Sequence record: OR539218.1
DNA from: Escherichia phage vB-Eco-KMB26
Length of the DNA stretch: 64,000 nucleotides
Reading direction: 5' to 3' (one strand)
Below, piece after piece: positions 9,949 to 46,361 of the stretch (position 1 is its first letter; each line of letters starts with the position of its first letter). The notes under the pieces are model-generated. The model did no database searches, was not told the origin of the DNA, and worked only from the letters and a program-made list of their open reading frames with translations. The position numbers and the translations under genes were made by a program.

Positions 9949-10419
9949 TTAATCATGTGTCCACACCCCATCGGTATTTGACCAAAGTCGCTGATTATCT
10001 GATCCTCGCCACAGCTTTTTGGTCGGAAGATTTTTCTCATACTTCCCATCAATAATAACATCAACATATTTAAGCATTTCTAGCTGTTTAATATCTTCAA
10101 ACTTATATCCTGTCCACAACCAAATGCTTTTATTGGGATAAAGATTTTTAATAGTTTGAACCACAGAGTGAATCACGTCTCTGTTATCAGGATAAAGAGG
10201 GTCACCTCCGGTTATAGTTAATCCTTCTATATAATCATTATTCAAACATTCAATCAATTGTTCTAGTGTTTCACCAGTGAATGGAATACCATTTCTAGCA
10301 TTCCATGTTGATTTATTATAACACCCTTCGCATTTATGCAAACAACCTGTAACGAAAAGAACGACCCTGCAACCAGGGCCATTCACAAAATCGCAAGGAT
10401 AAAATCTATCATAATTCAT
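9949..10419 (-). CDS. nrdG: Anaerobic ribonucleotide reductase activating protein (radical SAM)
   Basis: 156 aa; CLHKCEGC cluster; matches T4 NrdG. Confidence 0.9.
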   Translation of the reverse strand: MNYDRFYPCDFVNGPGCRVVLFVTGCLHKCEGCYNKSTWNARNGIPFTGETLEQLIECLNNDYIEGLTITGGDPLYPDNRDVIHSVVQTIKNLYPNKSIWLWTGYKFEDIKQLEMLKYVDVIIDGKYEKNLPTKKLWRGSDNQRLWSNTDGVWTHD

Positions 10420-12233
10420 TGATGCTTAACCCTATGCATGATTTCTTTATTTTTGCCGAGATTAAATCCGCGTTCGTTCGGATTTCCCAAATAACCACAT
10501 GTTCTTCTTATTGTGTTCATCTTTTTAGGATCAGTTTCTCCACAAATAGAACAAACAAATCCGTTTTCAGTAGGAGTCATTTCATGGGTACTTCCACATG
10601 TAAAACATTTATCTACTGGCATATTAACACCAAAATAATCTAAATGTTGTGCAGCATAATCCCAGACAGCCTCAAGACCTTTTAGGTTATTTTTCATATC
10701 AGGAAGTTCAACATAAGAAATGTGACCACCTGTCGCAATGAAATGATATGGCGCTTCACGAGAAATTTTTTCAAACGGAGTAATATTTTCTTCTACTGAA
10801 ACGTGGAAACTATTAGTATACCAGCCTTTATCGGTAACATCTTTTACACTTCCATATTTTTCTGTATCAAGTTTACAGAAGCGATAACAAAGGTTTTCAG
10901 CAGGAGTCGAATATAAACTAAAAGCAAACCCAGTTCTTTCAGCCCACTGTTTAAGACGAGCATTCATTTTAGTTAAAATTTCTTGTCCAATATCACGACC
11001 AACAAGAATATTCAATTCATGAATACCAATGTATCCTAAAGACACTGAACTTCTACCGTTTTTAAATAACTCAATTATGTCGTCATCAGGTTTAAGACGA
11101 ACCCCGAATGCACCTTCTTGGTAAAGAATAGGAGCAACAGTCGCTTTAACTCCTTTTAAGGAACTAATTCTACACATCAAAGCTTCAAAACATAAATCCA
11201 TTCGCTCATTGAACAATTCAGTAAATTTCTGTTCATTGAACTGTGTTCCAATATAAGAATCCAACGCAATACGAGGAAGATTCAGTGTTACAACACCAAG
11301 ATTATTACGTCCATCAAGAATTTCATTACCGGTTGAATCTTTCCACGCACTCAAGAAACTGCGGCAACCCATTGGAGAAACAGGAATAGATGAGCCGGTG
11401 ATAGCTTTATTGTTCTTAGCTGAAATAATATCAGGATACATCCTTTTGCTTGCACACTCTAGAGCAAGCTGCTTAATATCATAGTTCGGATCGTCTTTAT
11501 AAAGATTAACACCTTCTTCAACGAACATAACAAGCTTAGGGAAAATAGGAGTTATCCCATCACGACCGAGACCTTTAATACGATTTTTCAGAATTGCTTT
11601 CTGAATCATTCGTTCAGTCCAGTCAGTTCCCGTACCAAATGTAATTGTTACAAAAGGAGTCTGTCCGTTTGAACTAAAGAGAGTATTTACTTCATATTCA
11701 TAAGCTTGGAATGCATCGTATACATCTTTTTCTGTTTTAGATTGAGCATAATTTAACGCATCAGCGATTTGCCATTTTTCTGCATCCTCAATATGTTTTG
11801 CATAGGTGCGTTTAACATAAGGAGAAAGTATTTTATCTACATTCGCAAAAGTCGTTCCGCCGTATTGGTGAGAAGCAACTTGCGCAGTAATTTGTGCCAT
11901 AATTGCAGTAGCAACGCCAATTGATTTAGGAGTTTCAATCTGTGCATTACCAAGCTTAAATCCGTTTTCAAGCATTCCTTTTAAATCTACTAAACAACAA
12001 TTAGTAAATGGAAGAGCAGGGGAATAATCAATATCATGGAAATGAATAATTCCGCTTTCATGCGCTTTCATAATAAAAGACGGGACCATATTTTTGGCAA
12101 TGTGTTTAGACACAATACCAGCCATAAGGTCCCGTTGAGTTGGAAAAACACGAGAATCTTTATTAGCATTCTCGTTTAAAAGGTCTTTATTAGTTTTATG
12201 AATCAATCCTTCAATTTCTTTTTCAATTGTCAT
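10416..12233 (-). CDS. nrdD: Anaerobic ribonucleoside-triphosphate reductase, uninterrupted (no intron)
   Basis: 605 aa; C-terminal Zn ribbon and glycyl-radical motif RRTCGYLG; matches spliced T4 NrdD. Confidence 0.93.
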   Translation of the reverse strand: MTIEKEIEGLIHKTNKDLLNENANKDSRVFPTQRDLMAGIVSKHIAKNMVPSFIMKAHESGIIHFHDIDYSPALPFTNCCLVDLKGMLENGFKLGNAQIETPKSIGVATAIMAQITAQVASHQYGGTTFANVDKILSPYVKRTYAKHIEDAEKWQIADALNYAQSKTEKDVYDAFQAYEYEVNTLFSSNGQTPFVTITFGTGTDWTERMIQKAILKNRIKGLGRDGITPIFPKLVMFVEEGVNLYKDDPNYDIKQLALECASKRMYPDIISAKNNKAITGSSIPVSPMGCRSFLSAWKDSTGNEILDGRNNLGVVTLNLPRIALDSYIGTQFNEQKFTELFNERMDLCFEALMCRISSLKGVKATVAPILYQEGAFGVRLKPDDDIIELFKNGRSSVSLGYIGIHELNILVGRDIGQEILTKMNARLKQWAERTGFAFSLYSTPAENLCYRFCKLDTEKYGSVKDVTDKGWYTNSFHVSVEENITPFEKISREAPYHFIATGGHISYVELPDMKNNLKGLEAVWDYAAQHLDYFGVNMPVDKCFTCGSTHEMTPTENGFVCSICGETDPKKMNTIRRTCGYLGNPNERGFNLGKNKEIMHRVKHQ

Positions 12234-13566: not shown

Positions 13567-13737
13567 TTAACCCCGAAGCTTATTAAGTTCTTCATAATCA
13601 ATCCAGGATTCTAATCCTGATGGCAAATCAGATTCAATTTCCCAAAGAAGCTCTTCAATTTTCTGAAGACGATCTAGTTCTTCGGCTGGAATAGTAACCA
13701 TTGACGGAGCTCGTGATACATTAATATCGTAAATCAT
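13567..13737 (-). CDS. Small acidic ORF (56 aa)
   Basis: Hand translation MIYDINVSRAPS...LNKLRG; fills the gap between flanking genes. Confidence 0.35.
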   Translation of the reverse strand: MIYDINVSRAPSMVTIPAEELDRLQKIEELLWEIESDLPSGLESWIDYEELNKLRG

Positions 13738-13739
13738 AT

Positions 13740-13955: not shown

Positions 13956-14215
13956 TTAAAATATTCTCGCAGTTGGTCAAATCCACCAATATGACTTCCA
14001 TCAGGAGCAAATACCTGAGGCATTGTCAAGCCGATTTGAGTATCACGACCTAGTTTAGTCAGAAGCTCAGCGATTTTCTCATCATCAAAAACACCTTTTT
14101 CCGGCATAATGTTGATAAATTCAAACGGCTGTTTCTTCACAGTCAAAAGACGTTTTGCATTATCGCAATACACGCATTTATGAATGTTGCTATCATAACC
14201 ATATACTTTAAACAT
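13952..14215 (-). CDS. nrdC: Phage thioredoxin/glutaredoxin NrdC
   Basis: 87 aa; CVYC active site; matches T4 NrdC. Confidence 0.9.
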   Translation of the reverse strand: MFKVYGYDSNIHKCVYCDNAKRLLTVKKQPFEFINIMPEKGVFDDEKIAELLTKLGRDTQIGLTMPQVFAPDGSHIGGFDQLREYFK

Positions 14216-14216
14216 A

Positions 14217-14459
14217 TTATTCCTTAATTCCTAGTACTTGTTTAAAAGTCTCGTCGTAATCAAGACTTTGGCCCGTTTGTTCTTTATGTTTGTATATAAT
14301 ATCACTTACTTCTGATAGCATATTTTTATATGAACGAGTTAAAGCAGATTTAAGCACGCTGTATCTATCAGGAAATTTACCGTGTTCATTATAATAAGCT
14401 ATTGCTAATTCACGGACTGCCTTTTCAGCAGCCTCCATATATTCTTTACGCTTGGTCAT
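14217..14459 (-). CDS. Hypothetical protein (nrdC.1 position)
   Basis: 80-aa ORF. Confidence 0.55.
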
Positions 14460-14461
14460 TT

Positions 14462-14851
14462 TTAATCCAAAATATTATTAGGCATTGGTTGAACACTCAC
14501 AAGTTCTTTAAAGAACTCAGTAGAGTCAGGCAATTTAACCATTTCCGGAGCATGCTTACTGAATTTATGTTTACATTGACGGCATTTATATTCAAGCTCT
14601 GGTTTACGCCAGTTAATCAACTGAACTTGTTCAGTACCGCATTCAGGGCAATTAGGAACGTTTTTAGAAGCTCTTTCACGTCGTTCAACCATAGCCATAA
14701 TAGCATCCCATGCTGGAGGTTTAAAATCTAAATCGTCGCAGCCGTGAATCTTTCCACGCATTTCCATATCATCTTCCTCACCAGCCATAATAATTTTAAT
14801 TAAACTGGAATTACTTGAAGCTGCAATGTCTTCTAATAAACGCTTTTTCAT
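14462..14851 (-). CDS. Hypothetical protein with zinc-ribbon-like CPECG...CRQC motif
   Basis: 129-aa ORF; four Cys in CxxC...CxxC spacing. Confidence 0.55.
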
Positions 14852-15777
14852 TTCAATACCTCAATAGCATTACGTAAACCATTTGCTTTTGCATTAAGAG
14901 CTTTTAACAATTTGGTGTGTTCTGCAATTTGGGCTTCAACTTCAATCAAACGGGCATTGAGATATTCACGTTCTTCACTCAGATTATCAACCTTTTCTAC
15001 TTTAGGCTCTTTTACAACTGTCTTATATGTATTAGGGTTCTTCAGTTTAATTAGAATGCGTGAACTGTACAGCATTGAATCATTATCTTCGGTTTCGTCA
15101 TACATTTCCACTACGTCCATCATCTCCACCATCGTGCAGAGTTTATAAGACAACGAACGAATAATTTTGTTGTGCTTATTAATTTCTCTAGCTGTCATGG
15201 TGCCGAGATTACGTGAGTAATAATAAGGAACCTGGATATTAATTAATACTGATGAACCACCTGGCTTGTGTGTTACTTCATCAGCAATAACCCAATCCTT
15301 AACATGAACTGTATTTGTACGGTCATCGCCCGCGGTAAATAGTTTACGAGCATGCTTAAAAAGCATATTCACTTGGTCATTGAATTGACAAGCGAATTTA
15401 TCAGCAAATTTAGTTTCGGGAATGGTAGATAACCAATCAGCCAAATGGGTCTTTTTAACATCGTTAACAATAGTAAATTCAACCAAATCGGTTATAGATG
15501 TCGCAGTTTTAATGAATCTCGGCTTCATAAAGTTTTTAATGTTATCGCGAGCTACAGTAGAAGATAACATACGAGAACGTTTAAACCATTCAAGTAAATT
15601 GCCTAACGAATGAGAATAAGCGTTCTGAGTATCTTTACAGATATGATTTTCCTGGCCAACATACTGAAGGAAATCACGAAGAATATTATTGATTACTGCT
15701 CTGTGTCCTATCTGATAATCACGATGTTTAGTAATAAGACTGTCAAAATAATCAATATAATGTTTACGAGTTTTCAT
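14848..15777 (-). CDS. Hypothetical protein with C-terminal coiled coil; paralog family member 1
   Basis: 309 aa; MKTRKHYIDY start; heptad-rich C-terminal ~50 aa. Confidence 0.6.
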   Translation of the reverse strand: MKTRKHYIDYFDSLITKHRDYQIGHRAVINNILRDFLQYVGQENHICKDTQNAYSHSLGNLLEWFKRSRMLSSTVARDNIKNFMKPRFIKTATSITDLVEFTIVNDVKKTHLADWLSTIPETKFADKFACQFNDQVNMLFKHARKLFTAGDDRTNTVHVKDWVIADEVTHKPGGSSVLINIQVPYYYSRNLGTMTAREINKHNKIIRSLSYKLCTMVEMMDVVEMYDETEDNDSMLYSSRILIKLKNPNTYKTVVKEPKVEKVDNLSEEREYLNARLIEVEAQIAEHTKLLKALNAKANGLRNAIEVLK

Positions 15778-15829
15778 ATTCTTCTCACTTGGTTAATGGT
15801 TTATACTCCGAGCCATCCTTGGCTTTAAA

Positions 15830-16831
15830 TTACTTAATTAACTGTAAAGCTTGTTCAAGACGATCAAGACGATTAACGGATTCTTCCCAAATCTTTTTAG
15901 CCTGCTCATATTCTTTCTGCGCTTTATTAGAAATTTCTAGAACTTCTTTATAAGCTTTTTCTAGTGCAATAACTTCTGGACGAATTTCTACTGGTTCAGG
16001 CGAATCGTCAAGACATTCCATTAGTTCCTCAAGGGTAGTTTCTTCTTTAGGAGTATTCACAATTTCATCACATTTTTGTTGGTAAATTTCTTTATCAGTC
16101 GGTGAGTACGCACACTTTACTTCACGGAGACTAACTACAATTTTATATCCTTCCCAACCGCATATATTCTTAAAAGGATAAGTATGAATATTTTCTACTG
16201 TTTCCATACAAAGTAATGCGGTCTCTAACTGACGAGTTATATCGCTAGCAATTGAGAAAAATTTATTAATGTTCTTTTGATTAGCTTCTGGTGTAAAAAA
16301 TTCATAATTCACAAAAATAGCTGCTTTATTTTTATCAAGCTCATATTCTTTTATGATAATCATATCAGAAGCCCAAGGATGGATTTGACGATAATCACCA
16401 TAGCATAATTTAGAAGTTGATTTTAGAATTTGCTTCTTGAAAAGTCTAAAATTACTAATCCAACGACGAGTAAAAATATTCTCAGGGTCTTCTTTATTAT
16501 TAAGATGATAAGAATTAACATCACCGAACCAACTGTATCCTACTACATCTTTAGTTCGTTTAATTTCTTTCCCAAATTTACCAAGAATATCTTGATTAAC
16601 TAAATATGAAAGAAGACGAGAACCTTTAAAAGTTTCCTTAATATCATCTTTATATTCGCGACTAGAAATTTTATGAACTTCATGAATAAATTTGCTTGAA
16701 GAAACAATACTTGCATCAATATTATTGAGCCATTGATTGATAATGGAAATAACACTATTCTGACTAAACACAGGTTTAACTTTATCATCAATAACGCTAT
16801 TGAATGATTTGATATATTCGTTACGAGTCAT
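15830..16831 (-). CDS. Hypothetical protein with C-terminal coiled coil; paralog family member 2 (ORF track extends to 16882)
   Basis: Start at MTRNEYIKSF, preceded by GAGGAG RBS. Confidence 0.6.
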   Translation of the reverse strand: MTRNEYIKSFNSVIDDKVKPVFSQNSVISIINQWLNNIDASIVSSSKFIHEVHKISSREYKDDIKETFKGSRLLSYLVNQDILGKFGKEIKRTKDVVGYSWFGDVNSYHLNNKEDPENIFTRRWISNFRLFKKQILKSTSKLCYGDYRQIHPWASDMIIIKEYELDKNKAAIFVNYEFFTPEANQKNINKFFSIASDITRQLETALLCMETVENIHTYPFKNICGWEGYKIVVSLREVKCAYSPTDKEIYQQKCDEIVNTPKEETTLEELMECLDDSPEPVEIRPEVIALEKAYKEVLEISNKAQKEYEQAKKIWEESVNRLDRLEQALQLIK

Positions 16832-16859
16832 ATTAATCTCCTCAGTAGAAAGTAAGAAC

Positions 16860-16889
16860 ATTATACCACATCCTTGTGGCAAAGTAAAC
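16860..16889 (-). promoter_or_regulatory. Early promoter (-35 TTTAC, -10 TATAAT)
   Basis: Minus-strand agTTTACtttgccacaaggatgtggTATAAT upstream of the 16831 start. Confidence 0.5.
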
Positions 16890-17911
16890 TAGTTTAGTGC
16901 ATTTAGTGCATTGTTCAGTTTAGAACGTTGCTTCGTAAGATTTTTGACTTTTTCTTGAGCTTTTTCTAGCATCTTTTCAGCTTCTAGCACTTCATTAGTT
17001 GCTTTAACGAGTTCATCATCTACTGCCTTGATAGACTTCTCAATCGCATCCGCGTGCCATTTTTCAACAGGTTTAAGACTCGGATTTTCAATAGGAAGAA
17101 AATTCACTTTATTGAATTTCCATGCATCTTTATTACCTGAGCTATACATCCAAAATTTAGGATCGTTTGATGAGCAATTAGATAAATTTAAGTTATCTTG
17201 CACTTCCTGCTTTTTCTCTTGCGGGACTTCATCCTTTCTCAAAAAATCGTATTTAAATGAAACGATCATATCAAGTTCATACGTTGTTGTATGTTCCCAA
17301 TTTCGCTCAAAATGAGGTAAAATCTTAGACTGAACAGCGGCAACAACATCCATATACTTAAATGCTTCTGTCAACTGTGATTTAAGGCATTCACAAATTG
17401 AAAGAGAATTTTTTGTATTAGGTTTAAAGCTAATTCGTGCAGTTCTATTATTTTCTTTTAATGGTCTTACTTCCATCTGAAGAGTATAACCATCAAATTT
17501 CAGGTTCTTTAAGTTAATGTCAGAACCTTTTAATCGACTAGCCGTCGACAAAATTTGCTTTAATTGTTTACGGAATAGAGCAATAAATCTCCATTCAAGA
17601 CGGTAATGATTTGGATTAAAAAATCCTGTTGATAAATCAACCTTACTCTGACCAACGCCTTGAACAAATAGAGGATTTTTATAATCAATAGTTTTACAGA
17701 AATCGGTGAGCTGTTCGCGAGCAGTCATTTGCGTAATATATCCAGCTTTATCAAAATGTCGCAGCCATTCACTGCTATTCATATACTTAAAGTGATGAAT
17801 AACACGATTAACTTTATCAGGGTCTAAATTATTTTCACACAAAAATGTCATAACATCACGAGTATAGCTGGCATTACGAACCATATCTTCAATTTGAGAA
17901 CGAGTTTTCAT
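16889..17911 (-). CDS. Hypothetical protein with C-terminal coiled coil; paralog family member 3
   Basis: 340 aa; MKTRSQIEDM start. Confidence 0.6.
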   Translation of the reverse strand: MKTRSQIEDMVRNASYTRDVMTFLCENNLDPDKVNRVIHHFKYMNSSEWLRHFDKAGYITQMTAREQLTDFCKTIDYKNPLFVQGVGQSKVDLSTGFFNPNHYRLEWRFIALFRKQLKQILSTASRLKGSDINLKNLKFDGYTLQMEVRPLKENNRTARISFKPNTKNSLSICECLKSQLTEAFKYMDVVAAVQSKILPHFERNWEHTTTYELDMIVSFKYDFLRKDEVPQEKKQEVQDNLNLSNCSSNDPKFWMYSSGNKDAWKFNKVNFLPIENPSLKPVEKWHADAIEKSIKAVDDELVKATNEVLEAEKMLEKAQEKVKNLTKQRSKLNNALNALN

Positions 17912-17919
17912 GGTGTTCC

Positions 17920-18828
17920 TTAAGATTTAAGTAAATCAACGATTTTAATTAATTTTTCACGCTCAGATTTAGCTTTACTACTCAATCCAGATAGTCTGAA
18001 AATTTCATCATCATATTGCTGAATAGAAATATTTAGCTCTTCAATCTGCTTATTAAAATAAGCAATTTGTTCAGAATGTTTTTCATTACTGCGAACTGGT
18101 ACAGGTTTTGTAGGTAATTTAGTTGAACTGGATTCATCTGGGCGATAAATTAAAATGCAATTTGAACCAATCGGACATTTAGCACCAGACACATATTCTA
18201 ATGTTCCGGCTTCTTTTAAAACTTCAAAAGCTAAACAGAGATGATGCCCCATATTAACATAATCTGTAGAGCGAGCTCTGATGTAATAATCATCTCCACG
18301 AGTACTAAATTTAAAGCATTTAAGGTCTTCTGTATTATTGGTCTTAAAAATCATTTGTTTATCTAGACCTTTAGCTAATCGAGCGCCTAATGCTAATAAT
18401 CGTCGTTGATTTTCCCACAAATCCGCAATCATTTGGTCAAATGATAATTTCGGCATTAGTCTACCATAAAGGTCATATCCTTTATTATAATTGCGAAGGA
18501 TTTCACTCGCATTAATACGAGACAACGCTCCAATTTTATTAAGGGCTTTCATGATGCGATTAGATAAACCCATTCCAGATCCGTTTGTTCGTTGCAAATG
18601 TTTATCTAACCCAAACCCAATATCAACTTTAAATTTATCTAAAATTTCAGCATGAACATCTCTGTCAATAACATTCAAATCCAAAGTTGGGTTAAATCTA
18701 TGAAAAAATTTATCTGGCTCTCCACGACGAAGTACAGTCCATTCATTTAATTTTTTATTAACTAAAGATTTAATTACTGCATTGACATTATTAATTACTA
18801 CTGACATATTTTCCTCACTCAATTTCAA
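17920..18828 (-). CDS. Hypothetical protein with C-terminal coiled coil; paralog family member 4
   Basis: 302-aa ORF. Confidence 0.6.
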   Translation of the reverse strand: MKLSEENMSVVINNVNAVIKSLVNKKLNEWTVLRRGEPDKFFHRFNPTLDLNVIDRDVHAEILDKFKVDIGFGLDKHLQRTNGSGMGLSNRIMKALNKIGALSRINASEILRNYNKGYDLYGRLMPKLSFDQMIADLWENQRRLLALGARLAKGLDKQMIFKTNNTEDLKCFKFSTRGDDYYIRARSTDYVNMGHHLCLAFEVLKEAGTLEYVSGAKCPIGSNCILIYRPDESSSTKLPTKPVPVRSNEKHSEQIAYFNKQIEELNISIQQYDDEIFRLSGLSSKAKSEREKLIKIVDLLKS

Positions 18829-19222
18829 TTTTACTAAATATACAGAATAAGATGGAACAGACTATATAAGCACCACACACAGATTGAACTAATACCATTC
18901 CAAAGAACCAAACAATATTATCAAACAATGTCTGTTTTACGTCGAAAGGACGTAAACTTACAGTAATATTATCGCCTTTTTCTATTGATGAATACATCTC
19001 TGGTGAAATATATTCACTAAATCTATAACCGTCTTTGAGTTCATATACGGCAATAAACGATAAACTAGACCCCTTTCCTTGAGTTCCTGTAAGGGTATTA
19101 ACTACAGTAACATCATAATCTTTATAATGCATATAATCATTAATTGCGTAATAACCATATGCAATTGCTATACATAAACAACATATCAATAAATTCAATC
19201 TTTTAATTATCAACTGTTTCAT
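18815..19222 (-). CDS. Membrane protein with hydrophobic segments at both ends
   Basis: 135-aa ORF. Confidence 0.55.
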   Translation of the reverse strand: MKQLIIKRLNLLICCLCIAIAYGYYAINDYMHYKDYDVTVVNTLTGTQGKGSSLSFIAVYELKDGYRFSEYISPEMYSSIEKGDNITVSLRPFDVKQTLFDNIVWFFGMVLVQSVCGAYIVCSILFCIFSKIEIE

Positions 19223-19277
19223 AATAATCTCAATTAAAAGGGCTTAGAACCATTATACCATCCTTGGTATAAAGCGG

Positions 19278-19805
19278 TTATGCGAGTACCGTCTTTAACC
19301 GTTCTTCAAACTTCCGAAGAGTATTCTGGCGTTCAGCTCTTTGCTTTTTGTAAGTTTCAATACGCTCTGAAATGAGAGTGTATCGTTCATTTACTGATTC
19401 TTTCATAAAATCAGGAATTTCACGAGAAGCTTTAATCTCATCAAATTTATCAATAACAGCTTGCTCTTCAGCAATTAAGTTATCATACATCAAAATATCT
19501 TTCTTGATGAACTCAATATCTTCTTGAGTTACACGAGATAATTTAGATGCTTTATCCTTTTTGTACTGTTCGTTAGTATCACGAGACCAGTGTAATGTAC
19601 GATTTTTATTCGTATTCTTGTAAATTTCTACAATACCAATCTCATCGATAATAACGATCCAATTCCAACGAGATTTGTAAATTTGTCCTCCGTCAACCGT
19701 GATTTCACCTCCGATTGAGATGTCATTAAAGAACTTACTTTGTGCTTCAGATTTAAATTTACCATCGTTGTAATTTACCAGGTTGAAAATATCTTTAGCG
19801 TTCAT
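19278..19805 (-). CDS. Hypothetical protein
   Basis: 175-aa ORF; GGAGG RBS; early promoter upstream. Confidence 0.6.
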   Translation of the reverse strand: MNAKDIFNLVNYNDGKFKSEAQSKFFNDISIGGEITVDGGQIYKSRWNWIVIIDEIGIVEIYKNTNKNRTLHWSRDTNEQYKKDKASKLSRVTQEDIEFIKKDILMYDNLIAEEQAVIDKFDEIKASREIPDFMKESVNERYTLISERIETYKKQRAERQNTLRKFEERLKTVLA

Positions 19806-19824
19806 TTTGTGTTCCTCCGTAGTT

Positions 19825-19863
19825 GATAGTTGTATAGTACCACAGAGGAACAGTCTTGTAAAC
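19825..19863 (-). promoter_or_regulatory. Early promoter (-35 GTTTAC, -10 TACTAT, then ACAACTATC)
   Basis: Conserved gatagttgtatagtacc...gtaaac motif on plus strand. Confidence 0.55.
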
Positions 19864-19865
19864 CA

Positions 19866-20180
19866 CTAAAAGAAACTTCTTTCACAATTTTTTCCACTGA
19901 ACCATGCGCTTACCGCTTTCTTAGTCTCAGGAGCAGTGTTATCCATAAACCATTCAAAGGCAGCCTTTTTATGATTCTGGAGGGCTTCTCGGGCTTTAAT
20001 CTGCTCACGGTCTATTAACACTAACATATGAGCCTTTCTTGTCACCATGGGCTTCTTATGATTTTTTGAATACTCCCAGTCATTTGTCCATCGCATTGTC
20101 GTTGCGAACTTAAATACTGCTTCTTTAATTTTAGTTTCGTAAATTTCACGAGCCTTTGAGTATAACATCATTACCTCCAT
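19866..20180 (-). CDS. Hypothetical protein
   Basis: 104-aa ORF. Confidence 0.5.
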   Translation of the reverse strand: MEVMMLYSKAREIYETKIKEAVFKFATTMRWTNDWEYSKNHKKPMVTRKAHMLVLIDREQIKAREALQNHKKAAFEWFMDNTAPETKKAVSAWFSGKNCERSFF

Positions 20181-27727: not shown

Positions 27728-28176
27728 TCAACAATCACAATTTCTAATTTAGAGGAATATGTATCTAAAATCCCCTCAATAATATCCCAGTTCCCTTTAC
27801 CTATGCCTGCACCAATCCTAGGCATATAGATTGTAGGTTTAATCAGTTTATTTTCACCAAACTCATTTAATTCTAACATACAATTCATTAAAGCGGAATA
27901 CTCAAAATTTGGCCCTGGTTGAAATTGAGTATAAAGGTTGAAGCAATACGCTTTATGAGTCCTAAAGTATTTTTCATAGACTGAGTAAGAACCGAGTTTA
28001 GTTACATCACCCCATTCAGTCTGTAATTTATCAGCTTCCAAAATTTTAGGGAAAGCTTTGGTTAATTGACCCGCTACGCCTGAACCCATAGTATGAAAAC
28101 AATTGCATCCATGCGCAATATTTTTACCTTCAGCGAAAAGGGCGACAATATCGCCCTTGATATATTTTACAATCAT
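27709..28176 (-). CDS. Macro-domain-like protein (predicted ADP-ribose binding/hydrolase fold)
   Basis: 155 aa; GDIVAL...HGCNC...MGSGVAGQL and IGAGIGKG resemble macro-domain GDIT...NAAN...GGGVxGAI and glycine-rich loop. Confidence 0.45.
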   Translation of the reverse strand: MIVKYIKGDIVALFAEGKNIAHGCNCFHTMGSGVAGQLTKAFPKILEADKLQTEWGDVTKLGSYSVYEKYFRTHKAYCFNLYTQFQPGPNFEYSALMNCMLELNEFGENKLIKPTIYMPRIGAGIGKGNWDIIEGILDTYSSKLEIVIVDWEPLL

Positions 28177-28514
28177 CTAGTACTCAATCCTCGATTATAA
28201 GAATCTACCAAACGGTCAACCATTGAATGACAAGCGGCTTTATCTTTCTCCTCCGCAACTGAACATTCTAAGGTATTCCACTTTTTAGCATATCGTTTTA
28301 ATAATGTATCGTTTTTGTATCTGCTTGATTTATCTCTTTCTCCGTCTTTATATGCATATATTAATTTCTGCGCAAATTCAGCTTGGCATGCTTTATTTTT
28401 CCCACAATAATCTGCCGCAGTGCGATTTACATATTCTCTAATTTCAGTATATGATGTATCTGCTAACGCAGAAAATGAAATTAATCCTATACATAAAACC
28501 AAAATTTTAGTCAT
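28173..28514 (-). CDS. Secreted/periplasmic small protein
   Basis: 113 aa; N-terminal MTKILVLCIGLISFSALA followed by DTSY; 4 Cys. Confidence 0.5.
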   Translation of the reverse strand: MTKILVLCIGLISFSALADTSYTEIREYVNRTAADYCGKNKACQAEFAQKLIYAYKDGERDKSSRYKNDTLLKRYAKKWNTLECSVAEEKDKAACHSMVDRLVDSYNRGLSTR

Positions 28515-29052
28515 TTACTATTTCCAAAAGTTTATTATTTTTAAGGTAATTAGCCTTTTCTAGGACTTCAGAAGCATATTTAGAACCTGCTTTAACATTC
28601 CATCCCGAATTATAAGATGATATTGCTTTTCTTATATCGCCCTTATGTATATTTAACCAATAAGAAAGTTCAATGTACGCCCAGGAAGCTGAATTGGATC
28701 GTTTATTCAACATTCTTTTTATTTCAGCATCGGTCATATTATAACCAAGTTCCTTAACTCTTGCTCGCATAGTAGGCAAATAATTTTGGAACATTCCATA
28801 AGCGTGATGCTTTGGTTTAGATTTTAAATTAACTCCGCCAGAGCTTTCTTGCCATAAAATAGCAGCCATTATATGACCTAATCCGCTCTTGTGGATATTT
28901 TTGTGTGTTTTATATTTTCCATCCTTAGAAAACTGTTCCCCGAATTGATACGCGTAACGCATGTTATCGAGTTGGACATTACTGAAAGTATGCTCGGAGC
29001 TATGTGCCATCATAGAAATGGCCAATAGACCAGCGAGTAGTGCTTTTCTCAT
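28507..29052 (-). CDS. Secreted lytic-transglycosylase-like (SLT-domain) protein
   Basis: 181 aa; signal peptide; catalytic-type WQESSGG, GMFQ and SYNSG motifs. Confidence 0.55.
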   Translation of the reverse strand: MRKALLAGLLAISMMAHSSEHTFSNVQLDNMRYAYQFGEQFSKDGKYKTHKNIHKSGLGHIMAAILWQESSGGVNLKSKPKHHAYGMFQNYLPTMRARVKELGYNMTDAEIKRMLNKRSNSASWAYIELSYWLNIHKGDIRKAISSYNSGWNVKAGSKYASEVLEKANYLKNNKLLEIVND

Positions 29053-29059
29053 GTTTACC

Positions 29060-29521
29060 TCATTGAGTTTTAATTACTGCTTTAGAAGCCTTTCCTGGTA
29101 AACGACGACTGTTGATAATTGCCATCCTACATTGAAGTGACGGGTCTTTGAACTTCTCATTAGGTTTACAAACTGTAAATCCAAGCCAAAGATTTCCATC
29201 TGTAATTTCTAAACGTCCAGGACGATATTCAACTCCATCAATAAAATCCTCATCAATGTCAGGACGCGGAGGCATACTCAGGAATTCATTAACTTCTAAA
29301 ACATGGTCTTTTATTTTATGGAATAATTCAAAAACATATGTCTCATCAATCTCCCGTTGAATTGCACGATCAAGAAGATGTTGAGAATATTTTAGATGAA
29401 ACGATGAGACCCCTGCTGCTTTTGATGCCTCACGAATCTCATTGTTAATTTGACGAAACTCCGACTCAAAGTGACGACGAAGCTTATTTCGACGGATAAA
29501 AACTTCTGTATTGATAGTCAT
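29060..29521 (-). CDS. regB: Sequence-specific mRNA endoribonuclease RegB
   Basis: 153 aa; MTINTEVFIRRNKLRRHF... matches T4 RegB. Confidence 0.92.
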   Translation of the reverse strand: MTINTEVFIRRNKLRRHFESEFRQINNEIREASKAAGVSSFHLKYSQHLLDRAIQREIDETYVFELFHKIKDHVLEVNEFLSMPPRPDIDEDFIDGVEYRPGRLEITDGNLWLGFTVCKPNEKFKDPSLQCRMAIINSRRLPGKASKAVIKTQ

Positions 29522-29539
29522 GTTGTTCTCCTCTTAACT

Positions 29540-29578
29540 GATAGAAAAATTATACCACAGTCAAGAGGAAAAGTAAAC
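29540..29578 (-). promoter_or_regulatory. Early promoter upstream of regB (-35 GTTTAC, -10 TATAAT)
   Basis: Minus strand aactGTTTACttttcctcttgactgtggTATAAT. Confidence 0.6.
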
Positions 29579-29580
29579 AG

Positions 29581-29859
29581 TTATTCTTTAAATCTAATCA
29601 ATTTATTCATAGACTTTGAAACTTCTGCACGAACCTCATGTAGATTTTTGAGCTGTTCAAGACGCTGCGTATAGTAAGCAATTTCATCTTCTTCGAGACA
29701 GTCCTGTGAATCTTCTTTAAGATACCGTGCATAGTCCTGGAAAGCGTTACGGACTACTTCCTGGAAGTCATCAAGACTTTGAATTTTCTTAGGAGCAGCA
29801 GACACACGACGAGGGGCAGTATAATACTCATAACCAAACCCTGCGCTTAATTGAGCCAT
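29581..29859 (-). CDS. Hypothetical protein (vs.3 position); start MAQLSAGF by TAATG overlap; ORF track extends to 29901
   Basis: Start context inspected by hand. Confidence 0.5.
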
Positions 29860-30125
29860 TAGTATTTTTCCTCTGGTTGGAACACAGCACGACAAGCCCA
29901 CATACTGGCTTCTTTGAGTTTCGTTTTAGCAATAGCTAACTGATCGAGGCTTTCAGCATAATTCTTCGCGAGTTCAAAGTCTTCGCAATTATCTAGTGCT
30001 TCCCAGAATTCATCATATAAAGCATCAAAGATAAGTCCTAAACGAACTTCAGCGTCTTTAATAGCATTTACTTTACCGATTTTTTCGTCGGTATGTGGCT
30101 TATAACCTTTAATATCTTCAATCAT
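29859..30125 (-). CDS. Hypothetical small acidic protein at the vs.4 position (T4 vs.4 is the anti-CBASS protein Acb2; identity here not verified); ORF track extends to 30161
   Basis: Start MIEDIKGYK after GAGGA RBS. Confidence 0.45.
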
Positions 30126-30339
30126 ATTTGACTTCCTCACCAGTACATAAATCGTATTCAACTAAACGAATAGGTTCATGAATGCCATATCCCTGAACAG
30201 AAATTTCTGTCGTAGGATAAATTCCACTAATATCACCCATATTCCACGCTTCATTAAATTGCTGTTCGCCTGAATTACTAAACCACTCGGCGAAAGCATT
30301 TAGCACATCTTCAGAACCTTCAATAATTATCTTTGCCAT
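30118..30339 (-). CDS. Hypothetical small acidic protein
   Basis: 73-aa ORF. Confidence 0.5.
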   Translation of the reverse strand: MAKIIIEGSEDVLNAFAEWFSNSGEQQFNEAWNMGDISGIYPTTEISVQGYGIHEPIRLVEYDLCTGEEVKYD

Positions 30340-30701
30340 TACAAACTCTCGGTGAAGGTACGAGCGATAACGTCGCGCTGCTGTTCCGGAGTCAGAGAGT
30401 TAAAGCGAACTGCATAACCGGATACACGGATGGTCAGCTGCGGATATTTTTCCGGATGCTTAACTGCATCTTCCAGAGTTTCACGACGCAGAACGTTTAC
30501 GTTCAGGTGTTGACCACCTTCAATTTTAACTGTAGGCTGTTGCTCAATTTCAATTTCACGGGCATGCAAACCATAGAAAATTTCTGGGTCTACAAAAGAG
30601 TCCTCTTTAAAGGTTTTAGAGACAATAATTCGTGCTTGAATACCATCTTCAAAATAAATAGTACCTTTATGTGTGCCTTCAAGAATTTGATATGCTTTCA
30701 T
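30339..30701 (-). CDS. Autonomous glycyl radical cofactor (GrcA/YfiD-like; T4 Y06I-type)
   Basis: 120 aa; C-terminal glycyl radical motif RVSGYAVRF. Confidence 0.8.
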
Positions 30702-30707
30702 ATAACC

Positions 30708-31088
30708 TCAATTAGAAAATAAATTTATCCAAGATTGTTCTTTAATTAAAAATGGCTCAGAATCATATGCCATTAAACTCTGTGTGATTAGTCCTTTAAA
30801 AGGCCCATCAATAAATTCCATGGTAAAATATGGAATTTTATTCATTAGCCGTGCATTAGGAGCCGTGCACAAAACTCTGCATCCTTTGAATACGCCTTTT
30901 TGTAATTTGTATTGCTTGGGACAAAATTCGCTCAAAATGTTATTTTTTGCCAAAATTTCAAAATGATTCACCAATTTATTTTTAATAGTTTTTGGCGAAA
31001 AATAAAGATATTCGAAAAGCTGAGTGTCTGTCATCATTGCATTCCGATTACGAAAAACTGTGGACGAGTAATACCACCAATGCAACAT
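30708..31088 (-). CDS. Hypothetical protein
   Basis: 126-aa ORF. Confidence 0.5.
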   Translation of the reverse strand: MLHWWYYSSTVFRNRNAMMTDTQLFEYLYFSPKTIKNKLVNHFEILAKNNILSEFCPKQYKLQKGVFKGCRVLCTAPNARLMNKIPYFTMEFIDGPFKGLITQSLMAYDSEPFLIKEQSWINLFSN

Positions 31089-31573
31089 TTAATATTACAG
31101 CAGCAGTGTACAGTGTCAATATGGACACTATAAATCTTATCCATATCAGGAGATTTGACAGGCTCATCAATTATATACAAAATTCGCGAAAGTGATAAAC
31201 CTCTGAACTTGCTTCCTTTATTACCAATAAAACTGCGCACAGAATCAGTAAATAAACGAAAACGTATATCATCATTAGAATAACGCGAAAATTCCTTTTT
31301 AATATTATCTGCGGAAATTTTAGCGTAAGCTGAAGTATTAGAAAGAACAATAACTGTTCCACCGTCATACAACCAATTAGCGGCAAAATTAGTTACTGCA
31401 GTTGATTTACCAGATTGACGCCCACCATCTAGTCGAAGTGTACAATACTGTTTAAGTAAGTCTTCAAATGGCGGGATATATTCGTTTTTACAAATTTCTT
31501 CTACTCTAGCATCAGAATGGTGTGTAAAAGCATTCATCAGGGATAGATAAGGACCAGTTAAAAATGTTCTCAT
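31034..31573 (-). CDS. P-loop NTPase-like protein
   Basis: 179 aa; Walker A GGRQSGKST; Walker B-like ILYIIDE. Confidence 0.55.
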   Translation of the reverse strand: MRTFLTGPYLSLMNAFTHHSDARVEEICKNEYIPPFEDLLKQYCTLRLDGGRQSGKSTAVTNFAANWLYDGGTVIVLSNTSAYAKISADNIKKEFSRYSNDDIRFRLFTDSVRSFIGNKGSKFRGLSLSRILYIIDEPVKSPDMDKIYSVHIDTVHCCCNIKCCIGGITRPQFFVIGMQ

Positions 31574-31719
31574 TTTTGTTCTCTCTAGGTTTGGGCCATT
31601 CCATGGCGCATGAATTGTCCATTTCTGTATTTACCCATTACCGCACTTGGGCTCGACCTTATTACAGGTTGGCGGGAATCCCTCACAGAATCATGAGGTC
31701 CAGGTTATTCCCATGTTAT

Positions 31720-32136
31720 TTAAATGTAAATATTTTTGCCGTAATACTTATACCAGTGTGGCTTCATTAAAATTTTTTCATCGAGTCGTTGTTGACTCAA
31801 CTTAATAGCTGATTTGCATGGATTATAATCATTTTTCCATTCTACTGGAATATCGCTGATGTCAGGAACTTCAGTATCTTTTATACTGAACCCGCGTTTT
31901 AAGCATTCCGTTATAATGTCCGATTGACGCTTTCGCAAAAATTCTAACTTATCGTAAAAGAAAGTAACATGACCAGAACCTAAAATAAATTTAGAAGATA
32001 TTTTAAAATCTTTAACGCGCTTACCGTTTGCCACATGCTTACGAACTATACCAAAAACACGCGGCAATTCACGGTATTCTGCGATTAAATGTTGATCAGC
32101 AAGTTCAGATACTAAAGTCAAATTAATACGAGTCAT
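31720..32136 (-). CDS. denV: Endonuclease V (pyrimidine-dimer DNA glycosylase)
   Basis: 138 aa; [17 protein letters not shown]... matches T4 DenV. Confidence 0.92.
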
Positions 32137-32154
32137 TTTATCCCTCCAAGTAAC

Positions 32155-32191
32155 TGTGAATATACTATCACAATTCTAGGAGAAAGTAAAC
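32155..32191 (-). promoter_or_regulatory. Early promoter upstream of denV (-35 GTTTAC, -10 TAGTAT)
   Basis: Minus strand GTTTACtttctcctagaattgtgaTAGTAT. Confidence 0.5.
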
Positions 32192-32195
32192 AACT

Positions 32196-32726
<531 letters not shown>

Positions 32727-37307: not shown

Positions 37308-37383
37308 TGGTCGAGGCAGTAGGGATCGAACCTACGACCCAGGACTTAGAAGGTCCTTGCTCTTCCTTCTGAGCTATGCCTCG
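37308..37383 (-). tRNA. tRNA-Arg (anticodon UCU), CCA encoded
   Basis: Hand-folded cloverleaf: 7-bp acceptor, anticodon loop cuUCUaa, T-loop TTCGATC. Confidence 0.85.
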
Positions 37384-37387
37384 TATT

Positions 37388-37462
37388 TGGCGGACGTGAT
37401 AGGATTCGAACCTATAACCAATCGCTTAACAGGCGATCGCTCTGCCATTGAGCTACACATCC
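37388..37462 (-). tRNA. tRNA-Asn (anticodon GUU), CCA encoded
   Basis: Hand-folded cloverleaf; anticodon loop cuGUUaa. Confidence 0.8.
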
Positions 37463-37466
37463 AAAT

Positions 37467-37553
37467 TGGTGGGGAGTGGTGGAGTCGAACCACCCGAGTC
37501 GCAATGACAATGAATTTACAGTCCACACCGCTACCTCTACGGGATAACTCCCC
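37467..37553 (-). tRNA. tRNA-Tyr (anticodon GUA), long variable arm, CCA encoded
   Basis: Anticodon loop cuGUAaa; 87 nt; perfect acceptor stem. Confidence 0.7.
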
Positions 37554-37562
37554 AAATTAATT

Positions 37563-37637
37563 TGGTGGCCCTGGGTGGAATTGAACCACCATCTGGCGAT
37601 TATGAGTCGCTTGCTTGAACCTTCCAGCTACAGGGCC
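37563..37637 (-). tRNA. tRNA with CAU anticodon (most likely the AUA-reading tRNA-Ile by position; Met not excluded)
   Basis: Perfect 7-bp acceptor; anticodon loop cuCAUaa; position matches T4 tRNA-Ile. Confidence 0.7.
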
Positions 37638-37638
37638 T

Positions 37639-37714
37639 TGGTGCTGATTGACGGAATCGAACCGCCGACCTTCTCATTACAAGTGAGTTGCTCTACCTAC
37701 TGAGCTAAATCAGC
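37639..37714 (-). tRNA. tRNA-Thr (anticodon UGU)
   Basis: Hand-folded; anticodon loop cuUGUaa. Confidence 0.85.
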
Positions 37715-37719
37715 AAAAC

Positions 37720-37809
37720 TGGCGGAGGCGATAGGATTTGAACCTATGAGTCGCCGGAGCGACTGCCGGTTTTCAAGACCGGTGCATTAAACCACTCTGC
37801 CACGCCTCC
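37720..37809 (-). tRNA. tRNA-Ser (anticodon UGA), long variable arm
   Basis: 90 nt; anticodon stem CCGGU/ACCGG; loop cuUGAaa. Confidence 0.85.
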
Positions 37810-37811
37810 AG

Positions 37812-37885
37812 TCTCCGTGGCAGGATTTGAACCTACGACATTCTGCTCCCAAAGCAGACGCTCTACCAAACTGAGCTACACGGAG
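37812..37885 (-). tRNA. tRNA-Pro (anticodon UGG), no encoded CCA; abuts tRNA-Ser
   Basis: Hand-folded; anticodon loop uuUGGga. Confidence 0.85.
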
Positions 37886-37895
37886 TAAATTAAAT

Positions 37896-37969
<74 letters not shown>

Positions 37970-37974
37970 AAATT

Positions 37975-38061
37975 TGGTGCGAGAAGTGGGACTCGAACCC
38001 ACAAGGAAATCATTCCGCAGCATTTTAAGTGCTGTGCCTTTACCAATTTGGCCATTCTCGC
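37975..38061 (-). tRNA. tRNA-Leu (anticodon UAA), long variable arm
   Basis: 87 nt; anticodon stem CAGCA/UGCUG; loop cuUAAaa. Confidence 0.85.
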
Positions 38062-38062
38062 G

Positions 38063-38135
38063 CTGGGAATAAAGGACTCGAACCTTTGCATCCTGGAATC
38101 AAAATCCAGTGCCTTACCAACTTGGCTAATTCCCA
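38063..38135 (-). tRNA. tRNA-Gln (anticodon UUG), no encoded CCA; abuts tRNA-Leu
   Basis: Hand-folded; anticodon stem CUGGA/UCCAG; loop uuUUGau. Confidence 0.85.
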
Positions 38136-43819: not shown

Positions 43820-45530
43820 TAACCTTAATTGGTTTGTTGGTGTTGTTGAAGATAGAATGGACCCATTAAAATTAGGTCGTGTTCGTGTTCGTGTGGTTGG
43901 TCTGCATCCACCTCAAAGAGCACAAGGCGATGTAATGGGTATTCCAACTGAAAAATTACCATGGATGTCAGTTATTCAACCTATAACTTCTGCAGCAATG
44001 TCTGGAATTGGAGGTTCTGTTACTGGACCGGTAGAAGGAACTAGAGTTTATGGTCATTTTTTAGACAAATGGAAAACTAACGGAATTGTCCTTGGCACGT
44101 ATGGTGGAATAGTTCGCGAAAAACCGAATAGACTTGAAGGATTTTCTGACCCAACTGGGCAATATCCTAGACGTTTAGGAAATGATACTAATGTATTAAA
44201 CCAAGGCGGAGAAGTAGGATATGATTCGTCTTCTAACATTATCCAAGATAGTAACTTAGACACTGCAATAAATCCCGATGATAGACCACTATCAGAGATT
44301 CCAACCGATGATAATCCAAATATGTCAATGGCTGACATGCTTCGCCGTGATGAAGGATTAAGACTAAAAGTTTATTGGGATACTGAAGGATATCCGACAA
44401 TTGGTATTGGTCATCTTATCATGAAGCAGCCAGTTCGTGATATGGCTCAAATTAATAAAGTTTTATCAAAACAAGTTGGTCGTGAAATTACTGGAAACCC
44501 AGGTTCTATTACGATGGAAGAGGCGACGACTTTATTTGAACGTGATTTGGCTGATATGCAACGGGACATTAAATCACATTCTAAAGTAGGACCAGTCTGG
44601 CAAGCTGTCAACCGTTCTCGTCAAATGGCGTTAGAAAATATGGCATTTCAAATGGGTGTTGGCGGTGTAGCTAAATTTAACACAATGTTAACTGCTATGT
44701 TAGCCGGAGATTGGGAAAAAGCATATAAAGCCGGTCGTGATTCATTGTGGTATCAACAAACAAAAGGCCGTGCATCCCGTGTTACCATGATTATTCTTAC
44801 GGGGAATTTGGAATCATATGGTGTTGAAGTGAAAACCCCAGCTAGGTCTCTATCAGCAATGGCTGCTACTGTAGCTAAATCTTCTGACCCGGCTGACCCT
44901 CCTATTCCAAATGACTCGAGAATTTTATTCAAAGAACCAGTTTCTTCATATAAAGGTGAATATCCTTATGTGCATACAATGGAAACTGAAAGCGGACATA
45001 TTCAGGAATTTGATGATACTCCTGGGCAAGAACGATACAGATTAGTTCATCCGACTGGAACTTATGAAGAAGTATCACCGTCAGGAAGAAGAACAAGAAA
45101 AACTGTCGATAATTTGTATGATATAACCAACGCTGATGGTAATTTTTTGGTAGCCGGTGATAAAAAGACTAACGTCGGTGGATCAGAAATTTATTACAAC
45201 ATGGATAATCGTCTTCACCAAATAGATGGAAGCAATACAATATTTGTACGTGGCGATGAAACTAAGACAGTTGAAGGCAATGGAACTATCCTAGTTAAAG
45301 GTAATGTTACTATTGTAGTTGAAGGTAATGCTGACATTACAGTTAAAGGAGATGCTACCACTTTAGTTGAAGGAAATCAAACTAACACAGTAAATGGAAA
45401 TCTTTCTTGGAAAGTTGCTGGGACAGTTGATTGGGACGTTGGTGGTGATTGGACAGAAAAAATGGCATCTATGAGTTCTATTTCATCTGGTCAATACACA
45501 ATTGATGGATCGAGGATTGACATTGGCTAA
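43803..45530 (+). CDS. 5: Baseplate central spike / tail lysozyme gp5
   Basis: 575 aa; internal lysozyme domain (DEGLRLKVYWDTEGYPTIGIGH); C-terminal VxGxxxx beta-helix repeats. Confidence 0.95.
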   Translation: MEMISNNLNWFVGVVEDRMDPLKLGRVRVRVVGLHPPQRAQGDVMGIPTEKLPWMSVIQPITSAAMSGIGGSVTGPVEGTRVYGHFLDKWKTNGIVLGTYGGIVREKPNRLEGFSDPTGQYPRRLGNDTNVLNQGGEVGYDSSSNIIQDSNLDTAINPDDRPLSEIPTDDNPNMSMADMLRRDEGLRLKVYWDTEGYPTIGIGHLIMKQPVRDMAQINKVLSKQVGREITGNPGSITMEEATTLFERDLADMQRDIKSHSKVGPVWQAVNRSRQMALENMAFQMGVGGVAKFNTMLTAMLAGDWEKAYKAGRDSLWYQQTKGRASRVTMIILTGNLESYGVEVKTPARSLSAMAATVAKSSDPADPPIPNDSRILFKEPVSSYKGEYPYVHTMETESGHIQEFDDTPGQERYRLVHPTGTYEEVSPSGRRTRKTVDNLYDITNADGNFLVAGDKKTNVGGSEIYYNMDNRLHQIDGSNTIFVRGDETKTVEGNGTILVKGNVTIVVEGNADITVKGDATTLVEGNQTNTVNGNLSWKVAGTVDWDVGGDWTEKMASMSSISSGQYTIDGSRIDIG

Positions 45531-45564
45531 TATACTTCCAATGAGCGCTGATTTAGGAGAATCC

Positions 45565-46059
45565 ATGGAAGGTTCTTCTATCGACGTCACCTTTACCGCT
45601 CAATTAGAAACAGGTGAAACGTTAGTATCTATAAATATAACTAGTTACGAAGAAACTCCTGGGGTTTTAGTAGAAGAAAATCGCTTATACGGAACATATG
45701 AATCTGTGTTTGGATTTGGAAATGACGCGTTGAAATATCGTTTAGGCGATGAATTTAAAACTGCTGCTTCATGGGAAGAACTTCCTACTGATTCTGATAC
45801 TCAGTTGTATTTATGGAAAGCTCCTCAAAACCTCCAGAAGACATTCACTTACGAAGTAACATTAATATATGACTACCAAGAACAAAGTGAATCTGGAGGT
45901 TCTGGCAGTAATTCTAGGTCATCTTCTGATACTACTGAACCGACAGATCCTCCTGCTCCAGTAAGAAAAACTCTCGTTAAAAATTATACTAAAACTATAG
46001 TTGGAAATTGGAGTCGTTGGGCTAATAAATTAAGAAGCTATGTGTATGAGAGGTCATAG
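45565..46059 (+). CDS. gp5.1-like protein (ORF track begins at 45502)
   Basis: Start MEGSSIDV after AGGAGA RBS; Ser/Thr-rich. Confidence 0.55.
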
Positions 46060-46353
46060 ATGTCAGGATTAAGTTATGATAAATGTGTTACTGCTGGTCA
46101 TGAAGCGTGGCCTCCAACAGTTGTGAATGCTACACAAAGTAAAGTATTCACTGGAGGAATTGCTGTTCTCGTAGCAGGTGATCCAATTACAGAACATACA
46201 GAAATTAAAAAGCCATATGAAACACATGGCGGAGTGACACAACCCAGAACTTCTAAGGTATATGTCACTGGAAAGAAAGCTGTTCAAATGGCTGATCCAA
46301 TATCATGCGGTGATACTGTGGCTCAGGCATCATCTAAAGTATTCATTAAATAG
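46060..46353 (+). CDS. 5.4: PAAR-repeat spike-tip protein gp5.4
   Basis: 97 aa; matches T4 gp5.4. Confidence 0.85.
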
Positions 46354-46361
46354 GATTTAAA

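Follow-up and report, generated by a model that had tools for sequence, protein, structure and literature searches.

A T4-type phage GrcA gene whose 3' half appears to have been overwritten from the host grcA gene

The closest described relatives of the phage gene analyzed here are the spare-part proteins of pyruvate formate-lyase (PFL). According to one account (PMC8683613, citing Wagner et al. 2001), Escherichia coli YfiD and the phage T4 protein Y06I receive a glycyl radical from the PFL activase (PFL-AE) and restore PFL that has been cleaved by oxygen; the original prediction for this locus had stated the same, and this literature agrees with it. In YfiD, residues 1-60 are disordered and help in binding to cleaved PFL and in activation, and residues 61-127 are structured and insert into the active site of PFL (Andorfer et al. 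2021, PMC8683613). Spare parts of this kind are known for formate-lyases only, according to a 2026 review.

We analyzed a 64-kb stretch of DNA from Escherichia phage vB-Eco-KMB26 (record OR539218.1), which is called the window below. The original prediction had proposed a GrcA/YfiD-like cofactor with the motif RVSGYAVRF at positions 30339-30701, and this claim was borne out by the open reading frame (ORF), by the Pfam match and by 98% identity to the T4 protein Vs.6. The features of the locus are the following:

30339..30701, minus strand: vs.6, a grcA-like gene for an autonomous glycyl radical cofactor (from the ORF, Pfam and the T4 ortholog)
30402..30428, minus strand: glycyl radical fingerprint RVSGYAVRF (from sequence and alignment)
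30522..30701, minus strand: vs.6 codons 1-60, the phage-lineage N-terminal half (from GC content, alignment and profile)
30357..30521, minus strand: vs.6 codons 61-115, a putatively host-derived tract encoding the structured radical domain (from DNA identity)
30339..30356, minus strand: the last five codons of vs.6 and its stop (TTC ACC GAG AGT TTG TAA), with phage-type synonymous states
30118..30339, minus strand: vs.5 homolog, 73 aa, phrog_1986 (from the ORF and T4 annotation)

The vs.6 ORF fills exactly the first of these intervals (363 nt from ATG to TAA) and encodes a protein of 120 aa that contains no cysteines. The motif RVSGYAVRF corresponds to residues 92-100, of which residues 92-98 (RVSGYAV) constitute the PFL-type fingerprint. 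The Pfam Gly_radical model (PF01228) matches residues 60-101 with 67 bits and E=2.5e-18, the cut-off of this model being 22.2 bits. Alignment with E. coli GrcA and PflB confirmed the presence of the radical glycine, which is residue 95 of Vs.6 (codon GGT at 30417-30419) and is aligned with Gly102 of the former and Gly734 of the latter. Vs.6 is a small stand-alone Gly_radical domain protein that lacks the barrel of the glycyl radical enzymes. Its T4 counterpart (AF158101, 63557-63919; AAD42676.1; UniProt P13316, GRCA_BPT4), formerly named Y06I (Wagner et al. 2001), is also 120 aa long, is encoded at the same locus between regB and denV, carries the same RVSGYAVRF and shares 118 of 120 residues with the window protein. 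The two proteins differ by the substitutions Q54P and R73H, and codon 68 is GTA in the window versus GTT in T4.

The stop codon of vs.6 overlaps the ATG of the next gene, the vs.5 homolog, by one base (TAATG). The gene order is that of phage T4, with tk.4, vs, vs.1, regB and vs.3-vs.5 downstream of vs.6 and vs.7, vs.8, denV, e (lysozyme) and nudE upstream of it. Several smaller details of this region may be mentioned. The vs.7 and vs.8 ORFs overlap (30708-31088 and 31034-31573) and their start codons are uncertain, and the vs.8-like ORF is shorter here than the 660-nt vs.8 of T4. The denV gene (31720-32136) adjoins the lysozyme gene e (32196-32690), with a gap at 32137-32195; the internal head protein genes ipII and ipIII, which lie between denV and e in T4, are absent from this position here, as they are in phage DalCa. 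A promoter and terminator scan of positions 28000-32300 was uninformative, yielding 17 promoter-like sites versus 15.7 expected.

Judged from these sequence comparisons, the window gene is the ortholog of T4 vs.6, a phage-encoded GrcA that represents a diverged grcA homolog, old and conserved throughout the T4-like phages. As such it is a known gene, and it has been biochemically characterized in T4; what the present analysis adds is the putative conversion tract, identical to the host, and the occurrence of nrdD-grcA-nrdG synteny elsewhere among phages, both of which are described below. We found no description of this DNA-level mosaic or of the synteny in the searchable literature; key subscription papers lie outside that search, so a prior description is possible.

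The exact window protein is on record on 167 contigs. The gene was identified in 756 phage records at the megablast level and in 1586 at the protein level, and the observation is therefore not a matter of chance. Among the phage records searched by megablast, none is 100% identical to the window allele at the DNA level, and the best reaches 99.7%. Among the carriers are T4-like genera, T5-like phages and jumbo phages, along with others. The hosts recorded for the 1586 phage records all belong to Enterobacterales, Aeromonas or Vibrio, which are PFL-bearing facultative anaerobes.

The best PDB matches of Vs.6 are YfiD (6owr, E=9e-42) and residues 697-759 of PFL (E=5e-26), and a Foldseek search with its AF2 model returned YfiD (E=7e-7) and PFL (rmsd 0.7 A over 42 columns). 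The best-scoring protein family is the NCBIfam GrcA equivalog TIGR04365, yet the score of 154.9 bits is below the cut-off of 170 bits (E. coli GrcA scores 233.9) because the N-terminal half has diverged. The T4 protein is still named GrcA by NCBI and UniProt. Otherwise, the database labelling of this phage gene is poor: its GenBank labels comprise hypothetical protein, pyruvate formate-lyase, 2-ketobutyrate formate-lyase, acetyltransferase, ribonucleotide reductase subunit and GrcA, and its PHROGs family, phrog_1209, is given as 'unknown function'.

Compared with E. coli GrcA/YfiD (P68066; NMR structure 6OWR), the two halves of Vs.6 behave differently. The last 60 residues are the same at 60 of 60 positions, whereas the phage N-terminal half is 7 residues shorter and shares 18 of 60 residues. 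Unlike E. coli grcA, vs.6 is embedded in the AT-rich DNA of a lytic phage and is translationally overlapped with a phage ORF. Residues 697-759 of E. coli PflB (1H16, 2PFL) agree with Vs.6 at 49 of 63 positions, including one entire block of 21 residues; unlike PflB, the phage protein stands alone, with no ten-stranded barrel.

We consider it highly probable that Vs.6 is a T4-type GrcA that serves the host PFL, with its C-terminal half overwritten by host grcA, and that it is not a spare part for the anaerobic ribonucleotide reductase NrdD. The host radical-SAM activase PflA (PFL-AE) would take a hydrogen from Gly95 in the RVSGYAV loop, and the 60-residue C-terminal radical domain would replace the piece that host PFL loses upon oxygen cleavage at Gly734; the conversion of pyruvate to acetyl-CoA and formate would be restored. 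In vitro work on the 98%-identical T4 protein has shown this mechanism of PFL rescue, and we infer it for the window allele. Because the phage shuts off host gene expression, no new host GrcA or PFL would be made, and the phage copy of GrcA would keep the fermentative energy (ATP) supply going in the micro-oxic gut, which is a presumed benefit. The suggestion that the phage carries a 'self-contained anaerobic toolkit' is not supported, since both the enzyme served (PFL) and the activase shown to act (PFL-AE) are host proteins.

The same suggestion had described vs.6 as lying alongside the genes of the phage anaerobic ribonucleotide reductase (RNR). Both of these genes are indeed present in the window:

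10416..12233, minus strand: nrdD, anaerobic ribonucleotide reductase, 605 aa (PF13597, NRDD, E=2.7e-171)
9949..10419, minus strand: nrdG, the radical-SAM activase of NrdD, 156 aa (Fer4_12, E=7e-49, and Radical_SAM)

They are located 18-20 kb from vs.6, beside endonuclease VII, so that their presence stands and the word 'alongside' is a loose one. The nrdD gene of the window is a single uninterrupted ORF of 605 codons, and no group I intron was detected by Rfam in the whole window. The T4 nrdD gene (sunY) contains a group I intron with I-TevII.

A first alternative assigns Vs.6 to the phage anaerobic RNR, either as a protein in which NrdG installs the radical or as a replacement for the oxygen-cleaved C-terminus of NrdD. 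The Gly_radical domain recognized by Pfam is common to Vs.6 and to the window NrdD, and each of the two has an oxygen-sensitive glycyl radical site. From this shared domain, a role in nucleotide metabolism was also guessed by Nolan et al. (2006, PMC1524935), in whose comparison vs.6 is among only 11 ORFs of unknown function conserved in all T4-like genomes. However, the radical site of the window NrdD reads RRTCGYLG and is preceded by a CxxC...CxxC zinc ribbon, whereas Vs.6 has RVSGYAV, no zinc ribbon and no cysteine at all. BLASTP of Vs.6 against the window NrdD revealed no similarity outside the generic domain model, the best hit (E=6.4) falling outside the glycine loop. The R-x-C/S-G-Y-L-G loop, the Cys4 ribbon and the similarity to NrdD that mark the radical domain of a class III RNR are thus all missing from Vs.6. 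Further points against this assignment are the radical domain that agrees with host GrcA at 60/60 and with host PflB at 49/63 positions and appears to have been repeatedly re-copied from host grcA (see below), as well as the 18 kb between vs.6 and the nrd genes. To our knowledge, E. coli PflA and NrdG are also not interchangeable, as neither replaces the other. Finally, PFL-AE and PFL are the reported partners of T4 Y06I (PMC8683613). The proposed role as a repair part for NrdD is therefore unlikely for Vs.6, with its PFL-type motif.

An argument for some relation to the RNR comes from other phage lineages. In Salmonella jumbo phage 7t3 (L175:2177-4824), nrdD and nrdG immediately flank a grcA-like gene, and the stop and start codons overlap; RaK2-like contigs (L118:52-1545) have the order nrdD-grcA-(ORF)-nrdG, and a 235-kb phage contig (L133:6-1090) has nrdG-grcA followed by a glutaredoxin-like ORF. 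The jumbo phages with the nrdD-grcA-nrdG arrangement are about 350 kb in size, and in the RaK2-like phage the radical loop of NrdD reads RRVSGYLG. No nrdD or nrdG was found within 600 nt of the gene in T5-like or other T4-like loci. The nrdD-grcA-nrdG synteny speaks for radical systems that are sensitive to oxygen being selected or expressed together, and does not make NrdD rescue likely. From the nrd linkage in these lineages, co-selection as an anaerobic module is plausible, and the synteny in the jumbo and 235-kb phages hints at an RNR link beyond what PFL rescue alone explains. As an account of Vs.6 itself, we regard membership in the anaerobic RNR as improbable.

The second alternative concerns the N-terminal half, and holds that Vs.6 is a modulator or decoy that competes for PFL-AE or docks on PFL and thereby re-tunes pyruvate flux or formate production. 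This half is specific to phages and conserved among them, and its codons 1-60 are AT-rich (GC 0.34). AF2 predicts four beta strands in it with pLDDT 85-88, whereas YfiD reportedly has a disordered N-half that controls its binding to cleaved PFL (PMC8683613), and Vs.6 scores under the GrcA equivalog cut-off. Nevertheless, the phage N-half is still homologous to its bacterial counterpart. A profile built from 67 bacterial GrcA N-halves matched the N-half of the window protein alone with 17.4 bits and E=2e-7 per comparison, and motifs conserved in bacterial GrcA N-halves are kept in the alignment. By this profile match the phage N-half is only remotely homologous to the bacterial one, and the possibility that it is a foreign fused domain can be ruled out, since this half on its own already matches the bacterial profile. 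In the Foldseek search with the AF2 model, the N-terminal sheet yielded, beyond YfiD and PFL, only weak KOW/Spt5-like matches with E of about 0.15, which we do not consider meaningful. An inhibitor would also have no need of an intact radical loop identical to that of the host, and T4 Y06I is reported (PMC8683613) to restore rather than inhibit cleaved PFL. The decoy function is accordingly a quite improbable one.

We now turn to the DNA of the C-terminal half, which carries the evidence for overwriting from host grcA. Codons 61-115 (165 nt, 30357-30521) match extant E. coli grcA alleles without a single mismatch, being 100% identical to grcA of NZ_CP033850. Megablast aligned the 3' 185 nt of vs.6 with grcA of all 5426 complete E. 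coli genomes at 97.3% identity, and the mismatches within these 185 nt occur only in the last five codons and are all synonymous. Over the same 165 nt, the tract differs from grcA of Citrobacter at 14 positions, of K. pneumoniae at 21 and of Salmonella at 28, and from E. coli pflB at 33, while the tract peptides are nearly the same across all compared grcA genes. GC content is 0.49 in the tract versus 0.34 in the 5' half. When a Karamvirus homolog stands for the phage and E. coli for the host, the ratio of phage-like to host-like informative sites is 59:8 in codons 1-60 versus 0:38 in codons 61-115 (Fisher p=5e-21). At synonymous sites, the window tract does not differ from E. coli (0 of 42; dS 0), whereas Salmonella, with a near-identical tract peptide, differs at 24.5 of 42. 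The 5' breakpoint of the tract falls where the disordered part of YfiD gives way to the structured part. Taken together, this pattern indicates that vs.6 is an old phage grcA whose 3' half was probably overwritten from the host by homologous recombination (gene conversion).

Several other origins of the tract were considered and rejected. The pflB gene is ruled out as the donor by its 33 mismatches versus 0 for grcA. Assembly contamination is ruled out, as T4 itself and hundreds of independent genomes also contain the tract, and phage DNA flanks it on either side. Transfer from phage to host is ruled out because the divergence of the tract from other enterobacteria follows the host phylogeny, and it is also countered by the host-like GC content of the tract and its presence in all 5426 E. 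coli genomes. In a control megablast of the whole window against the same 5426 genomes, the tract was the only match to the chromosome, together with a weaker match to the pflB paralog, and positions 1-20000 and 45001-64000 gave no match. The other match in this control was the tRNA-Tyr region (about 37464-37556), 88% identical to sequences on some E. coli plasmids. This region belongs to a group of 10 tRNA genes at 37308-38135 on the minus strand (Arg, Asn, Tyr, Met, Thr, Ser, Pro, Gly, Leu and Gln); T4 has 8 tRNA genes, and the set here thus differs.

The tract is not equally host-like in all T4-like phages. In T4, it has 2 mismatches per 165 nt to E. coli grcA (dS 0.024), and the Mosigvirus tracts have 4-5 mismatches to E. 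coli (dS 0.10-0.13). Between the window allele and Mosigvirus, dS is 0.37-0.42 in the 5' half versus 0.10-0.13 in the tract. The tracts of Karamvirus, Slopekvirus and Pseudotevenvirus have 26-48 mismatches to every host tested, that of Karamvirus being AT-rich with low GC, and these three look unconverted by sequence.

A counterpart with a different donor was identified in the Klebsiella phage vB_KpnM-JEC (Jiaodavirus). Its tract has a GC content of 0.54 and 8 mismatches to K. pneumoniae grcA versus 21 to E. coli, with about 14 Klebsiella-specific synonymous states and the Klebsiella-type residues LLDAVEH. The two residues that are specific to the host (E/K vs L/E) also differ between E. coli GrcA and E. 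coli PflB. The breakpoint test gave 57:9 versus 3:35 (p=7e-16) with the same 5' breakpoint as in the E. coli phages, and the tract dS is 0.21 between JEC and K. pneumoniae, compared with 0.62 between JEC and E. coli and 0.62 between E. coli and K. pneumoniae. The K. pneumoniae grcA reference was taken from a K. pneumoniae chromosome labelled as a plasmid in PLSDB, and no K. pneumoniae grcA was present among the 80 grcA loci of the genome scan or the best 120 protein homologs. More generally, the PLSDB 'plasmids' include whole or partial chromosomes (CP125156.1, LR134122.1), for example a 5.37-Mb K. pneumoniae record, and the grcA of K. aerogenes NCTC10006 in LR134122.1 is frameshifted, probably by a sequencing error.

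The Klebsiella-derived tract in Jiaodavirus with the same 5' breakpoint implies that the process happened at least twice and with different hosts; at least two host-specific conversion events are thus well supported by the DNA comparisons. The tract alleles are of the E. coli type in Tequatrovirus and Mosigvirus and of the Klebsiella type in Jiaodavirus. Within the E. coli phages, the host-like tract ends at codon 118 in T4 and at codon 115 in the window allele, and its 3' end is mosaic at six sites. The window allele, with GTA at codon 68, and the common phage allele, with GTT, each match a different extant E. coli allele at 100% identity; as evidence of recurrence this is weak, since it involves one site only. 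Both the shared polymorphic site and the variable 3' tract ends in Tequatrovirus could also result from point mutation or from recombination between phages, and ongoing recurrence of the conversion is plausible. We find it reasonably probable that virulent T4-type phages repeatedly overwrite the radical half of their grcA with the allele of the current host, so that the spare part stays letter-identical.

That the host-identical half goes back instead to one recent uptake of the entire host gene, or was kept by strong purifying selection, is very improbable: the C-terminal domain is almost invariant as protein in all homologs, and one event followed by recombination between phages could explain Tequatrovirus and Mosigvirus, but protein constraint cannot keep 42 synonymous sites identical, of which 24.5 differ in Salmonella, the 5' half is common to T4-like genera that lack a host-like tract and cannot be aligned to E. 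coli DNA, phage DNA is present on both flanks, and a Klebsiella phage has a Klebsiella-type tract in the same position.

Viral contigs of about 150 kb from human-associated metagenomes (L110-L115, L122) encode GrcA homologs of 130-137 aa. Pasteurellaceae-type residues (NPDKY, VITRTF) are present at their C-terminus, and in the N-half they come much nearer to bacterial GrcA, with profile E of about 1e-16. These homologs suggest that tracking of the host type may extend beyond Enterobacteriaceae.

Gene conversion of the older phage gene would fit the known recombination behavior of these phages. T4-type recombination acts on short homologies, and marker rescue between phage and plasmid is routine. 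The protein-constrained 3' half stays about 75-85% identical to host grcA, so that fragments of degraded host DNA could pair with the 3' half of the phage gene, and the diverged 5' half and the phage-specific last codons would delimit the heteroduplex.

A related case is provided by the photosynthesis genes of cyanophages, such as psbA, which are likewise auxiliary metabolic genes of T4-like phages with patches of host sequence; the psbA patches are attributed to intragenic recombination with the host gene. Unlike in cyanophages, the carrier here is a classical virulent coliphage that degrades host DNA, and the tract is a single block that matches the structured domain and is identical to alleles of living hosts.

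The coincidence of the breakpoint with the disordered/structured boundary of YfiD makes this gene a natural experiment on the role of the N-terminal half, and the nrdD-grcA-nrdG operons of the jumbo phages make cross-talk between activases concretely testable. There is also a bearing on practice, as grcA has been chosen as a qPCR marker for Straboviridae (2026 typing study, PMC12845203), and half of this marker gene is indistinguishable from E. coli DNA. If our reading of the tract is true, vs.6 is a directly visible case of recent gene conversion from host to lytic coliphage, in which a phage that destroys host DNA would still gain host sequence by homologous recombination, recently enough to match the alleles of living E. 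coli.
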